Of a stretch of DNA of 64,000 nucleotides, positions 9,130 through 40,113 are shown piece by piece; the stretch's first letter is position 1, and each line of letters starts with the position of its first letter. The stretch is from a virus. A model generated the notes under the pieces. That model had not been told where the DNA came from. It made no database searches and saw only the letters and a list, made by a program, of their open reading frames with translations. The position numbers and the translations under genes are program-made. The DNA lies in IMG/VR virus record IMGVR_UViG_3300025889_000002, positions 1-64,000 of that record; one strand, given 5' to 3'.

Positions 9130-9183
9130 TGGGCCTGTCGCTATTTTATAGACATTCTTTTGAGTTTGGTTTAGGTGTTTCCA

Positions 9184-9921
9184 ATGGAAAAATTCAAAAC
9201 CATTCCAATAGCGGAACTTAAAAAGTCTTTGGATTATAATCCTGAAACGGGAATATTCCTAAGAAAGATTGACCCGTCCGTTAGGGGGTCGCTTAGGGCA
9301 AGGTGGGGCAATAAGCCGACATCACCAAACCCAAACAAGCACGGGTATCTTCTGGTTAGTGTAGGTGCGGTGCAGTTTCTCGCCCATCGCGTGGCGTGGG
9401 CAATCCATTACGGAGAATGGCCCCAAGGGCAGATAGATCACATAAATCACTGCCGAAGCGATAACAGGATTTCCAATCTTAGGGTTGTGAATGACGCGGG
9501 AAACAAGAAGAACATGTCACTCAGGACCGATAACAAAAGTGGATGTGCTGGCGTTTCATGGCGTGAAAATAGGCAGAAGTGGCGCGCCAGAATTCATGTT
9601 GATGGCAAGGAAGTCTGCTTAGGTCATTTCGAAAATAAGGAATCCGCAATCGCAGTCAGAGCGAAGGCGTTAAAGGAATATCAATTTCACAAAAACCACG
9701 GAAACCCAAGCCATGATAACCCGCGTAACAACCGAGAACGGCCAGGATCTAGGCGAGTGGGAAACGCAGCACCCTATCCGCGCTGGCGAGGTAATCACCG
9801 ATGGCGGGCAGGAATACGAAGCCATGTTCTATCAGGGCGGTGGCTTGATTGTGAGGGAAGTATGAGCAAAGGTCTCGTGGTTTTAGCGATGCTCGCATTC
9901 CGCAAGGAACAGCAACCATGA
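9184..9921 (+). CDS. HNH-AP2 endonuclease (3' extension doubtful)
   Basis: AHRVAW, IDHINHCRSDNRISNLR, NKSGCAGVSW...KWRARI. Confidence 0.85.
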   Translation: MEKFKTIPIAELKKSLDYNPETGIFLRKIDPSVRGSLRARWGNKPTSPNPNKHGYLLVSVGAVQFLAHRVAWAIHYGEWPQGQIDHINHCRSDNRISNLRVVNDAGNKKNMSLRTDNKSGCAGVSWRENRQKWRARIHVDGKEVCLGHFENKESAIAVRAKALKEYQFHKNHGNPSHDNPRNNRERPGSRRVGNAAPYPRWRGNHRWRAGIRSHVLSGRWLDCEGSMSKGLVVLAMLAFRKEQQP

Positions 9922-32965: not shown

Positions 32966-33337
32966 ATGATTACCACATTCTTTGCCTCGACCATCAATAA
33001 GGTATTCGCAGGTGTCGTTCTCGCGCTTCTGGTGGCCCTTGGGATAGCCATGTGGTCGAACGCCCGCAAGGACGCCACAATTGAAACCCTGCGCAACGCA
33101 GTGGCCGTCTCGGAGGCACAGCATAGCGTAACCGCTGCATCACTGGACTCACTGACCCGCCGCATGAAGGAGCTTGTCGAACAAGGGCAGTTGCGGGAAA
33201 GCCTGCTAGCCGAAGCCATGAAGGAAGCGGAAGAAGAAACGTCCGAATTGCAGGACGAAGCCGACGCCCTACGCAAGGAAGGTGTTACCGACCAGTGTGT
33301 GACGCCCGCTGGGGTGCTTCGAAGCCGTGGCTTGTGA
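32966..33337 (+). CDS. Inner-membrane spanin (Rz-like)
   Basis: N-terminal TM, periplasmic coiled coil, C-terminal Cys. Confidence 0.7.
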   Translation: MITTFFASTINKVFAGVVLALLVALGIAMWSNARKDATIETLRNAVAVSEAQHSVTAASLDSLTRRMKELVEQGQLRESLLAEAMKEAEEETSELQDEADALRKEGVTDQCVTPAGVLRSRGL

Positions 33338-33455
33338 TGCTGCGGCGGGTCAGGATTTGAACCTGAGACTGACCCGCCTTCGATCCACTAGGGCCATCGA
33401 CGCAGCGCTCTATCCTACAGGGCTTGGCTCCCTTCTGAGCTACGCCGCCGCAGCA
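33338..33455 (-). ncRNA. tRNA-like structured RNA (non-canonical)
   Basis: TAGCTCAG D-arm start, TCAGG-TTCAAAT-CCTGA T-arm, 11-bp terminal stem; enlarged arms, no CCA. Confidence 0.65.
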
Positions 33456-33467
33456 AGGAGAAACTAG

Positions 33468-33737
33468 ATGAAACGCATCGCCATCGCAAGCCTGTTGTTG
33501 CTTTCCGCCTGCAATCACCCGCAGCCTGGAATTGAGATACGTGAAATCCCGGTTGTCGTACCATCCCCTTGCTTGGCCAAAGACGACATCCCACCCGAAC
33601 CAGCCCAAGTAGGCGACCAGCTAACCGGCAATGCCGCGTCAGACCTGCTTATCGTGGCGGCGTCTGCGCTGGAATTGCGGGCGGCGGTTATCACGATGAG
33701 AAGCGCGCTTTTGGCTTGTGCGGAGGGTGAGGGTTAG
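33468..33737 (+). CDS. Outer-membrane spanin lipoprotein (Rz1-like)
   Basis: Signal peptide with lipobox LSAC, Pro-rich, two further Cys. Confidence 0.8.
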   Translation: MKRIAIASLLLLSACNHPQPGIEIREIPVVVPSPCLAKDDIPPEPAQVGDQLTGNAASDLLIVAASALELRAAVITMRSALLACAEGEG

Positions 33738-36700
33738 CTGTTCCTGTAGGCGCTATATGCGTCCGCAACATCGGCAAGAGCGTTGGCGTGGAACCCTTCG
33801 TCAATGGCACTGTAATGTTCAGCGCGTTTGCGAAGGTCGGCCACGACAATAGCGATAGCGGCGTCTGCGTCAGGCAGCCAGCAATCAACCATCTCAGCCA
33901 CGTCTGTTTCAGACAAGCTTGGGAAGTTCCGGCGGATCATCGCCTTCGCCACTTCATCCCTAAGCATACCACACTCCTTCCCCTGCGCCGTCATCCGGCA
34001 TTCTCGGTTAGTATGCCAGAGGGTTTGGGCGCATGAACCGCGCTTTCGTCCTTCGGATCGAGCCCTTCGGTCTCGCCGGTTCCCGCTTCAATCGCTTGCG
34101 CGAGTATCCGGCTCAGCTCGGGGTCTGGCTTAGGCGGGTGGCACCATTCGCAAGGGCGGATGCATAAACAAGAACCCTCGCCTTCATCGTAGGTGTCGCA
34201 TTGCCAATCCCACGAGCATCCGTAGATAAAGCCTTCGCCGTGGCAATTCGCGCAATCGCTTTCATCAAAATCCCAGTAGGGGTCATCCCCCCGCTCAATA
34301 CCAATCGGCATCGGTCTGCTCCATAAAACCAAGGGGGTAATTTTCTGGCAAGGGCATCCAAATGGCACCGCGCAGAAAATCATCGCCCAGAGGAAAGGCG
34401 TCTTCGCCATCAAGCGGACCATCGTCGCTCATCATCGCAAGGGATGACGAGCAGCCATCATCGCAGACTATGACAACCTTTTGCCCTGGTTGCGGCGGGT
34501 CGATTTCCCAAGACGCCCACGCGTCAGGGATTGAAGCCTTTGGTGGAGACGGCACGGCTCCATCGCGAAGCGACGAAAGCCCGCCCGGACGCACATCATC
34601 CTTATCCATCACACCCTCCCTCCGTTAAGCGCATCCAGAGCGGCTTTAAGCAAAGACCTGCGGGGTGTTTCCATGGGCAATATCCGCCCGGTGTAGCGAT
34701 GACCTCCGCCGAATGCGTGGGGATCGCGATTAGTGCGGGTAAGGCGTTCTATGCGGCTCACTTTGCGGCTCCTTTCAGGGATCGGATGGCTTGGGCAACA
34801 TCGTTGCAAGCCTCATTGTAGATGTCGGGCCGCATGTCTCCAGCAGACGCAGAGGCATCAACGTAGTGCTGCGCATAGCGTTCGCCTTCAGCAGACTCCG
34901 CCGCCCGCTCGTATGCCTCTCGCACCTGTTCCTCCAACCGAGTGTTACGGGCTTCGAGTGCGGCGATGTGGTCGCGGGCAGCAAGGAACGTGCACTCAGG
35001 GCGACCGCACTTGCAATCGAGCAAGACAAGCATGTCCTGCGTCTGCTGTGCTAGATCACTCACTGGCCTGATCCTTCGTTGAGTAGGTTGTCGATGCGAG
35101 TGATAGCCTCCCATGCGATTGCATCGTTCATTTCATGCCCACCGCCGGGGTCGCCTTCGCAAACCGCACAGCCACGACAATTGTTGCTTATGCGCTCCAG
35201 ATACTCCCTCACTGTCATGAACCCTTCCCGCTCTCGCGTGGGGGCGGATAGGGCGGCGCAAGAGGGGCATGGCAGACCTAAATCAGACGGCAGCATGGTG
35301 CGGTGGCCAACGGGTGGATCGACTGCATAAACTCGAGCGGCTTCACGCGCCGCTGCCACCTTGTCGGCTTCGGTTTCGCAGGCGTCCTTATCCCAAGCCA
35401 GTTTTGCCAAAAGGCCCGTTGCCGCCTCGACGTTTGCCACCCAGTCGGCAAACTCATCCCGATAGCGGTCGTCGTCCCATTCATACGGCCCGCGCCCTTC
35501 CAGCAGCCAGCGATGCCCGTTGAGCGCGCGTTTAATGTGGCCAAGTGCGATTGCCACAATGTAGCGATCACGGTCGAGCAGATGGCGCATGTCTTCCAAC
35601 CCCGCCGCGCTCGGCTCGGTCTTGGCGGATTTCAGCATTTCTCCTGCTTTGTTACCATCGGTCATGTGTTATTTCCTCGTCTGGCGAGACTAACGGCACG
35701 GTGACGCAAATTCTTGCATGCCTTGCATCTCTTATATCCCGTCTTTTTGTTTATATATGTATTCTCTGGCGTGTACTCGTGGCCCCGTCCACAATGGGTC
35801 ATCCCCTGAGTGGCCATCTTCCTAGAAATGCCACTGTTGCCCCTCTGAATGTTCACAATGTGGGTAACGGGCTCAAGGTGTTCTGGATTGCAACACGCCC
35901 GATTGCGGCACAAGTGGTCAACTACTAAGTCTGTAGGAACCCGCCCCTTAGTAAGATGGTAGGCAAATCGGTGAGACGATACCCGACCGAGCGGCTTGAA
36001 GTTGAATGACCCATAGCACTTAGGATTTAGATAGCCTTTCCACATCCAGCATTGGTCGCGCGTTCCGCGGTCTATTTTTGACCAAAACCTATCCTTCACT
36101 TTTTGCGAGATCGCTTCTGGGTCTGGGATGGGTTTGATTTTAATAGGCATCACCTCGATCCTTTAAATATCCGCGCAAACAGTCCGGGCCTCTCCATGGG
36201 CAGGATGCGCGCGTTGTAGTGGTAGCCGCCGCCAAAGTTCTGGCGGGGTGCGAACCTGTGGCTGCGTTCGTATGTGTGCGAGCGGGTCATGATGCGCCTC
36301 GGGCTTTGGCGATGGCGGCGCGGGCGCGTCGCTCACACTGTCCCTTGATCGTGAATCCGCCATGCTCGCGCAGGCATTCCTCCAGCGCTTCCAGTAATTC
36401 CGGTGCGGCTGCGATTAGGCGAGCGTTTGCCTCCCAAGGATCCGTCCCGGCTTCACGATGCTTGGCCAGCGTGATTGCATCCCTCGCTTCCGGATCAGAG
36501 GCTTGGCAGATGATGCCTCCACGGAATTGCCCCTGCTCGGTGACAGGTGCGCGGACACAACCCCAATCGTCATACTCATCGGGTCGGTAAGCCCACGGTC
36601 CCGGCGTGTGGTTCGTTCCCATCTCAAACACTCCCTGCCATTGATTGTGCGTCGTCTATGGATATGCCCTGCGCTGCCAGCGATCGCACAAGTGCGGCAA

Positions 36701-39233: not shown

Positions 39234-39555
39234 GGAACGCATGATGGAATACTACGAACACAAGCCGGTTGAATACCCAAACCTACCCATCGGACTTCGC
39301 ATCCTGTCATGGGCTATCGGCGCTGCAATAGGCACTGCGCTTTATCTGGTGGCCTATCACCTTGCACAGGTTCTTGCGGCATGACCCCCGACTACCGCGA
39401 CCGCTACTTGCAATCCAGGATCCAGTTAGCCGACACCAAGGCTGCTCTTGGAAATGTGACCCACGCACTCCTACTCGCCTGCAAAGCTTTGGAGAGCGAG
39501 GGCCACGATGTCAGCCACCTTAGAACAGCCGCAACAGAGACTGAAGGATTACGCT

Positions 39556-40113
39556 ATGAATAGGCCAGTGGAGATAACCCCTGCTGTCCTGCGCGATCTC
39601 ATATCATACGATCCGGAAACTGGCGATATGGTATGGAAAGAAAGGCCCGCAAAGTTTTTCATCGGAGCGAAAAGGGACGGCGATTGGTCGGCTAAGCAGT
39701 GGAATAGTCGGCTAGCGGGTAAGCCAGCTTTGGCTTCGGTTGCCGCTACCGGTTGCCTCAACGGAAGCGTTTTTGCGCAACCCCTTCTGGCTCATCGCGT
39801 GGCGTGGGCCATCTACCATGGAGAATGGCCTAAAAATGAAATTGACCACATCAATGGGAATAGGGCCGATAACCGAATTGTTAATCTACGAGATGTTCCG
39901 CGCTCTTTGAACGTCAAAAACTGCAAACGCCGAAAAGACAACACTTCAGGTTTCGCAGGAGTGTACCGGTATAAGAACCGATACCTCGCCCATCTTCGCA
40001 TTAACGGAAAACTGAAGATCGTTGCTCGGTGTGACACGCCAGAAGAAGCTTTCGCCATTCGCGAGCAGGAAAAACTCAAATATGGCTTTCACCCAAACCA
40101 CGGAAGAGATTGA
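39556..40113 (+). CDS. HNH-AP2 endonuclease
   Basis: YDPETG, AHRVAW, IDHINGNRADNRIVNLR, NTSGFAGV. Confidence 0.9.
   Translation: MNRPVEITPAVLRDLISYDPETGDMVWKERPAKFFIGAKRDGDWSAKQWNSRLAGKPALASVAATGCLNGSVFAQPLLAHRVAWAIYHGEWPKNEIDHINGNRADNRIVNLRDVPRSLNVKNCKRRKDNTSGFAGVYRYKNRYLAHLRINGKLKIVARCDTPEEAFAIREQEKLKYGFHPNHGRD

Follow-up and report, generated by a model that had tools for sequence, protein, structure and literature searches.

The Spanin Locus and Its Genome

In the window analyzed here (a stretch of 64,000 nt from an IMG/VR virus record), the i-spanin and o-spanin genes of a phage are separated by 118 nt whose minus strand resembles a tRNA. This raises the question of whether the stretch is a tRNA, the remains of one, a control element of the spanin mRNA, or an RNA gene in its own right. 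As an initial annotation of the sequence had stated, the 118 nt (33338-33455) fill the entire gap from the i-spanin stop to the o-spanin ribosome binding site (RBS). The genes around the gap are the following.

32966-33337 (+): i-spanin, Rz-like, 123 aa (ORF; phrog_739 and other Rz-like spanin families)
33456-33460 (+): Shine-Dalgarno sequence AGGAG (sequence reading)
33468-33737 (+): o-spanin lipoprotein, 89 aa, 270 nt, beginning MKRIAIASLLLLSAC (ORF; LLSAC lipobox read from the sequence)

The RNA element has its 3' end directly against the TGA stop of i-spanin (33335-33337). Just upstream of the spanins are genes for a PF11860 muramidase and a probable holin, and 28 homologues of i-spanin were found. 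On the other side, the final leftward gene (33734-33994, minus strand) overlaps o-spanin, which ends at 33737, at the stop codons (window 33734-33737), leaving no space for a terminator between the convergent operons. The element had been described as lying downstream of the leftward operon; this holds, only with the 270-nt o-spanin gene in between.

The window belongs to an 80,572-bp record with a 100-bp repeat at its termini. Self-comparison of the record revealed two related, collinear genomes of ~40 kb joined head to tail.

Record 1-40,350: phage A
Record 40,350-80,572: phage B

Identity between phages A and B ranges from 68 to 100%, varying block by block, and is 73% over the whole spanin region. 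The record is probably a co-assembly of two co-occurring phages, not a single virus, and its 100-bp end repeat is simply sequence that A and B share. The portal protein is 55% identical to that of Brucella phage Tb, and both phages are Brucella-Tb-like. No integrase was found among the ORFs of phage A, where the early and leftward ORFs were tested for an integrase domain. Four HNH endonuclease genes (HNH_3; one with NUMOD4) are present in this 40-kb phage, consistent with the mosaic, block-wise identity between A and B.

369-977: HNH endonuclease gene
9175-9921: HNH endonuclease gene
35662-36153 (-): HNH endonuclease gene
39508-40113: HNH endonuclease gene

A homologue of i-spanin was found on a 404-kb contig of Qipengyuania pacifica, meaning that relatives can be prophages. 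Based on this homologue, the host probably belongs to the Sphingomonadales.

Structure of the Element

The minus strand of the element begins TAGCTCAG and can be divided into the following parts.

33338-33455 (-): the whole closed, tRNA-shaped RNA element, 118 nt (sequence; model R1, described below)
33445-33455 (-): 5' strand of the closing stem, including the part homologous to a tRNA acceptor (inverted repeat)
33407-33440 (-): D arm with a GCTC/GAGC stem (alignments)
33374-33405 (-): arm replacing the anticodon arm (sequence reading; fold computation)
33350-33366 (-): T arm, TCAGG / TTCAAAT / CCTGA (sequence reading; inverted repeat)
33338-33348 (-): 3' strand of the closing stem, with no CCA after it (inverted repeat; alignment)

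The terminal stem noted in the initial annotation (33338-33348/33445-33455) was recovered as a perfect 11-bp inverted repeat, followed by a bulged C (33444) and one further pair (G33443/C33349). In the canonical acceptor register just three of seven pairs form; leader and trailer are base-paired, and a CCA is lacking. The D arm carries a 19-nt insert (33416-33434) in the variable pocket between AG and GGATA, which is missing from every homologue. Variation in length is tolerated in this D-loop pocket. The arm in the place of the anticodon arm is irregular in this copy. Its base has 3-4 bp, one of them U.G, and carries a TCGAT/ATCGA stem of 5 bp that ends in a loop of 11 nt holding CTA; a 5-bp stem with a 7-nt anticodon loop and U33 is not formed. 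The minus-strand start, T arm, TCGAT/ATCGA arm with CTA, enlarged D region and missing CCA listed in that annotation are thus all present.

ARAGORN, which had been named as a check, and Rfam found no tRNA here. With introns disallowed, ARAGORN called no tRNA gene in the whole 80.5-kb record. In Rfam no family reached its gathering score in the window, RF00005 was absent for this copy even at E ≤ 10, and other families gave chance-level fragments at most. A small ORF spanning the insert, with 46 aa in phage A and 52 aa in B, was rejected as a coding gene, the frames being different and nothing conserved. The element occurs as a single copy per genome, with no second copies or MITE-like spread, and a search for antisense targets of its variable parts within the phage genome yielded nothing beyond chance.

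A Family of Closed tRNA-like RNAs

A 25-nt core of the element has one further occurrence in IMG/VR, in a phage sequence (L005) that is otherwise without nucleotide similarity to this genome over 14 kb. The two elements are identical at 67 core positions, and their middle region is unalignable. Further members were sought with two queries, one made of the D segment together with the 5' acceptor, the other a pattern running from the D arm to the T loop. These searches yielded L165, L166, and L187/L188, plus the degenerate L168. Intact homologues therefore sit in four otherwise unrelated phage contexts (L005, L165, L166, and L187). L165 lies within a provirus of Novosphingobium aromaticivorans DSM 12444 and has phage genes on both sides; its neighbors are a GH108 lysozyme (Saro_2985 region) and an Rz-like spanin. 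Two copies, L011 and L168, are decayed and have lost the D and/or T arms, so that the tRNA shape is dispensable in some lineages. Random decay of a normal tRNA, an outcome that would have spoken against the initial annotation, is not what the family shows, despite the arms lost in these two copies.

A covariance model (R1) was built from four sequences, namely A, L005, L165, and L166. It scores A at 90 bits (E 8e-17), L005 at 109, L165 at 99.7, and L166 at 98.7 bits, all four being training sequences. L187, from outside the training set, is an independent match at 75.6 bits. With RF00005, whose gathering score is 29, the homologues reach 26.8-33.7 bits and this copy gives no match. The family was defined by a closing stem that is 9 bp or longer and has a bulged C, an Arg-type D arm (AG..GGATA), a T arm, a 7-nt variable loop (GTC..C), and a variable hairpin in the place of the anticodon arm. 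This copy, itself part of the training alignment, has every one of these features, and all of its helices pair.

Outside these phages, exact matches to the element-specific sequence numbered zero in 185,579 species genomes, and no host tRNA carries it. The element was likewise found in none of 151 sampled alphaproteobacterial genomes. The plain T arm taken alone is generic over many tRNA types and phyla, so that scanning with it is unspecific. Among GenBank phages there is no relative of the spanin region, and in blastn the elements match only 36 nt of tRNA-Met. A literature search found no description of such an RNA. The element is a member of a small, previously undescribed phage RNA family with the body of an Arg tRNA.

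Another sequence, L167, contains the 5' half of a Met-type tRNA (1236-1293) with the same GCGGCGGCGTAGCTCAG beginning, followed by unrelated sequence. It may be a tRNA fragment, for example the remnant of an attachment site.

Covariation and Conserved Bases

Alignment of the five intact members to a cloverleaf-like structure showed that 99.1% of 115 cells pair and that six pairs are changed on both sides, a covariation signal that rests on these few sequences. Of the compensatory pairs, the T stem accounts for three, the outer closing stem for two, and the base of the replacement arm for one. None of 500 shuffles reached the covariation score, and in a control with partners slid by 1-3 columns pairing fell to ~40%. 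Among the outer pairs of the closing stem, the one at alignment columns 3/123 occurs as four Watson-Crick types, and the one at 5/121 is GC in some members and AU in others. Because these pairs covary beyond the seven of a tRNA acceptor, the sealed end itself appears to be selected. In the T stem three of five pairs change on both sides, while the T loop is invariant save for one A/G position. Recurrence of both sequence and structure in four unrelated phage contexts, with compensatory changes, marks the element as more than a product of chance.

The alignment is invariant from the 5' strand of the stem up to and including the D stem, and again in GGATAGAGCGC, the frame of the variable loop, and the T loop. 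Every base that builds the elbow and core of a tRNA is among these, including the equivalents of U8, A14, G15, G18, G19, A21, C48, G53, U54, U55, C56, A58, and C61. Throughout the family the closing stem has 9-11 bp with a bulged C, the D and T arms are normal, and no CCA is encoded. The replacement for the anticodon arm differs in length and sequence in each homologue, and its distal part is unalignable. L165 has a stem of 8 bp closed by a 5-nt loop (GGUAG), L187 a stub capped by GAAA, and the other members a longer irregular hairpin. An anticodon loop (5-bp stem with 7-nt loop) is present in no family member, and CTA is not conserved, which removes the basis for reading the element as an amber suppressor.

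Wobble pairs point to the minus strand as the structured one. The pair at the arm base is U.G in four members and G.U in one, and G.U pairs occur in the closing stem of L187 and L011; on the plus strand these conserved pairs would be A.C mismatches. The strand is assigned from G.U pairs in conserved helices only, the G.U counts of minimum free energy (MFE) folds being uninformative. The initial proposal of a tRNA-like, minus-strand RNA is thereby borne out structurally, with a cloverleaf body that covaries.

The same annotation had drawn attention to a competing fold.

33344-33353 / 33369-33378 (-): alternative 10-bp helix, mutually exclusive with the T arm (inverted repeat, perfect in this copy)

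The helix is indeed perfect here and is included in the computed MFE structure (-51.8 versus -46.9 kcal/mol for the cloverleaf, a preference of ~5 kcal/mol), and it is identical in L005. In L165, L166, and L187, however, it has six broken cells and no compensation. Changes in the T stems of these three members are compensated within the T stem, and the alternative partner does not follow. The helix is therefore best read as a trait of the A/L005 sequence and not as a conserved switch, and conformational control finds no footing as a feature of the family.

The Spanin Junction as a Site of Accessory Cargo

Phage B carries a different tRNA-like body at the same junction.

Record 73037-73133 (L006:1495-1591; outside the window) (-): tRNA-like body of phage B (RF00005, 25.7 bits; cut-off 29)

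This body is of type II and Ser-like, with a perfect GTGGG/TTCGAAT/CCCAC T arm and a shortened anticodon arm, and no homologues of it were found. It is flanked by the same 8-bp outer stem as in phage A (TGCTGCGG / CCGCAGCA) and by the same block of promoter-like sequence and RBS. From the right arm of this stem onward, which includes the RBS and start, A and B are identical over the first 31 nt and 97% identical over the first 60 nt. In L011 a decayed A-type copy lies between the same stem and RBS, and in L010 there is no spacer at all, the i-spanin stop and o-spanin start overlapping as TAATG.

Further relatives hold protein genes in this region.

L003:3436-3789 (= L009) (+): Tad1 (Thoeris anti-defence 1) homologue, 117 aa (PDB 8kbb, E 8e-23; PF24729, 24.9 bits)
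L004:3725-4964: HNH endonuclease, 271 aa, phrog_374, within the o-spanin region

The carrier of Tad1 (L003/L009) is a sister phage whose i-spanin is 93% identical, and the gene lies between those for i- and o-spanin. In L004, another sister phage, the HNH gene comes after a leftover 5' fragment of o-spanin and before a new o-spanin whose signal peptide is different; the junction also holds an extra ORF. As the slot contains nothing, Tad1, an HNH endonuclease, or tRNA-like RNAs depending on the relative, the i-/o-spanin junction is a hot spot for accessory cargo. It could be useful for locating more anti-defence cargo.

Genomic Context and Putative Transcription

In five of six contexts (A, B, L005, L166, and L187), just 0-3 nt separate the stop of a convergent gene from the 3' end of the element. 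These genes are i-spanin in A and B, a 52-aa ORF after an endolysin in L005, a head-closure-like gene in L166, and the large terminase in L187. In the remaining context, L165, a gap of 68 nt separates the element from the Rz-like spanin. Upstream of the element, a hexamer scan identified a candidate promoter.

33461-33489 (-): candidate leftward promoter, TTGCGA (33484-33489), 17-nt spacer, TAGTTT (33461-33466) (hexamer scan)

It stops 5 nt short of the closing stem and overlaps the o-spanin start region. Sequences resembling -35 and -10 hexamers are found in every context, where 5-7 nt separate their end from the closing stem. The number of matching positions among 12 (with background probabilities) is 7 in A, B, and L011 (0.10), 6 in L005 (0.31), 9 in L165 (TTCACA-16-TAGAGT; 0.002), 8 in L166 (0.017), and 6 in L187 (0.31). 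Fisher's combination over five contexts, calculated by hand, gives about 1e-3. The weak match in A (7/12) lies in coding sequence that is conserved anyway, a stricter promoter scan flagged none at this site, and no terminator was found after the element. Taken together, the hexamers suggest that the element may be a separate small gene with its own promoter.

Proposed Function and Alternative Explanations

With slightly more confidence than doubt, the element is regarded here as a selected minus-strand RNA gene, a judgment made from sequence comparison. In the same measure it seems probable that the insert encodes a non-decoding, closed RNA derived from an Arg-type tRNA, and that this RNA is one of a small, conserved family found in phages and prophages whose hosts are of Sphingomonadales type. 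Transcription would run leftward from the element's own sigma-70-type promoter and start at the first base of the closing stem, giving a discrete RNA that would be about 90-120 nt long and protected by the pairing of its ends. The product would adopt an L-shaped fold readable by tRNA-binding proteins while being neither chargeable nor able to decode. On the late mRNA the closing stem would loop the insert out, and o-spanin would still be made since the cassette carries its own strong Shine-Dalgarno sequence.

What such an RNA might do can be stated only with less assurance. Action in trans as a tRNA mimic is put forward tentatively; the RNA could serve as a sponge or competitor, or could display the variable hairpin on a stable scaffold. 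The finding of Tad1 in a sister phage and of a different tRNA-like body in phage B, both in the same slot, would make the element accessory cargo, possibly for counter-defence. A counter-defence role, which is drawn solely from genomic position, is rather unlikely on present judgment. Equally speculative is the wider idea that Sphingomonadales phages carry sealed, anticodon-less tRNA mimics, expressed from their own promoters, as RNA counter-defence. Such mimics would soak up or blind a host reader of the tRNA body, for example a defence nuclease that recognizes the acceptor or the elbow. Their bodies would be swappable within a fixed promoter-stem cassette (Arg-type in A, Ser-type in B), in a slot shared with the protein sponge Tad1. 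A mimic that has neither an anticodon loop nor a free CCA would not fit the known anticodon nucleases. If true, this would be a different use of the tRNA fold, in which only the body is kept, the end is sealed, and the 'anticodon' arm is swapped; it could mean RNA-level counter-defence or a natural tRNA scaffold. The idea is directly testable because one member is in a prophage of the cultured, genetically tractable N. aromaticivorans DSM 12444.

Several other explanations were weighed against a minus-strand RNA gene. The element could be a cis-acting part of the plus-strand late mRNA, looped out between the i-spanin stop and the o-spanin Shine-Dalgarno sequence, with its tRNA likeness reflecting origin only. 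In this role it might couple the cistrons, block Rho loading or exonucleases, or form a two-way barrier at convergent ends. This agrees with the stop codon abutting one stem arm and AGGAG the other, with the close spacing to convergent stops in most contexts, with the stem and RBS common to A, B, and L011, and with plus-strand folds that are more stable than shuffled sequence (z-score -3.25 versus -2.05, better on the plus strand, in this copy; -4.43 on the plus strand of L005). However, the conserved D- and T-loop sequences and tertiary bases are meaningful on the minus strand only, and the conserved wobble pairs become mismatches on the plus strand. Moreover, there is nothing to couple in L005, L165, and L187, whose elements come after the final gene of the operon, and L010 manages with its plain TAATG overlap. 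A cis role is thus considered unlikely. Still less likely is a functionless origin, in which a captured, decaying pseudo-tRNA or repair filler DNA at a site cut again and again by homing endonucleases is tolerated because of its RBS. Every tRNA detector fails on the sequence, and its acceptor register is shifted. A and B differ in how the anticodon arm is disrupted, with a longer arm in A and a shorter one in B, decay has gone further in L011 and L168, and HNH genes are frequent in these genomes, one of them splitting the o-spanin of L004. Decay would not, however, account for 67 identical core positions in phages that are otherwise dissimilar and whose elements are unalignable in the middle, nor for compensatory changes in three helices and intact elbow bases. 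It also sits poorly with a compact genome and an ancestral state without any spacer.

A selfish mini mobile element, made of a tRNA-derived body with inverted ends that spreads between phages, lands after stop codons and keeps its structure for its own transfer, is an improbable source. It would explain the terminal inverted repeats, the position beside stop codons, the near-identical core in unrelated phages, and the different body between the same 8-bp ends in phage B, yet the element is single-copy, shows no visible target-site duplication at its ends, has no linked transposase or recombinase, and is missing from the species genomes and alphaproteobacterial sample searched above. Hardly any weight is given to a decoding tRNA, either an amber suppressor, for which there is a CUA in the loop, or an intron-containing tRNA-Tyr, which ARAGORN run with -i calls at c[33341,33451] (gta anticodon, 18-nt intron). 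The alignment of homologues contradicts the latter: the sequence called as an intron (GGATAGAGCG) is conserved and makes up the 3' half of the D arm. Against either form stand the loops of the family (GGUAG in L165 and GAAA in L187, with no 5-bp stem and 7-nt loop in any member) and the closed, bulged acceptor without CCA. In addition, all ORFs, including the long ones along the genome, stay open under translation table 11, with no in-frame stops that need read-through. An attP site built on a tRNA gene is given no more credence. Phages often integrate into tRNA genes, and the i-spanin homologue in Q. pacifica indicates that relatives can be prophages; nevertheless phage A has no integrase among its ORFs, the element is internal in the Novosphingobium provirus, integration would split the spanin pair, and the element-specific sequence is in no host tRNA. 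With five intact members and six compensatory pairs, the homologue and covariation analysis that the initial annotation had named favors a minus-strand RNA gene.

Comparison With Known tRNA-like RNAs

tRNA mimicry is known from eukaryotes, plant viruses, and bacterial Y RNAs, and real phage tRNAs were recently shown to defeat defences that cut tRNA. Counter-defence tRNAs of phages include the tRNA-Lys of T5, which acts against PARIS (PMC11464382), tRNAs directed against retron effectors (PMC11555353), and anticodon-loop variants (PMC10264068). The present element is similar in being carried by phages, in its canonical D and T arms, and as plausible accessory or counter-defence cargo. Phage tRNAs are complete, chargeable, and decoding, whereas this family has no anticodon loop or CCA and a closed, bulged end of 9-11 bp. 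Species 1 and 2 of phage T4 are stable tRNA-related RNAs encoded by a phage, non-decoding, and without a known function. The element resembles them in being phage-encoded, tRNA-related, and non-decoding. The genes of the T4 RNAs are part of a cluster of tRNA genes, and the maturation of these RNAs is carried out by tRNA enzymes.

The mascRNA/MEN-beta family (RF01684) also combines a tRNA shape with the lack of a working anticodon arm and lies beside other transcripts, as does the element. Its elbow is read by tRNA-processing enzymes. mascRNA is eukaryotic, is released by RNase P and RNase Z, and gets a CCA; in contrast, the ends of the element are paired and this pairing covaries. The phage B body gave only weak, chance-level matches to RF01684. 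YrlA (RF02553) is a non-coding RNA that copies the D/T elbow of tRNA and is sometimes phage-borne. The element resembles its tRNA-mimicking domain in copying the same elbow. In YrlA, however, the acceptor-like stem is capped and the two ends of the RNA lie in the Ro-binding stem, while those of the element lie in the acceptor-like stem itself. The sole match to the YrlA model was fragmentary, covering the D arm at 12 bits, and no gene for Rsr was observed. In engineered tRNA scaffold RNAs an arbitrary hairpin takes the place of the anticodon arm and expression is stable (PMC3753655). The element is built alike, with acceptor, D, and T arms kept and the anticodon arm swapped for a hairpin, although the tRNA scaffold is a laboratory design with normal tRNA ends.

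A pattern search for over-long tRNAs returned a mixed set that does not belong to the family of the element. Most of these are real tRNAs with long variable arms and perfect 7-bp acceptors. Over-long tRNA-like genes that ARAGORN does not call are present in other IMG/VR phages, namely L133 (5492-5599, minus strand), L140, L142, L147, L148, L150, and L158. The one in L133 has a perfect 7-bp acceptor and CCA, and its anticodon arm is a rod of ~19 bp capped by UUCG; in L140 and L158 hairpins are inserted into the D loop. Some of these genes are located in tRNA arrays and others are solitary.
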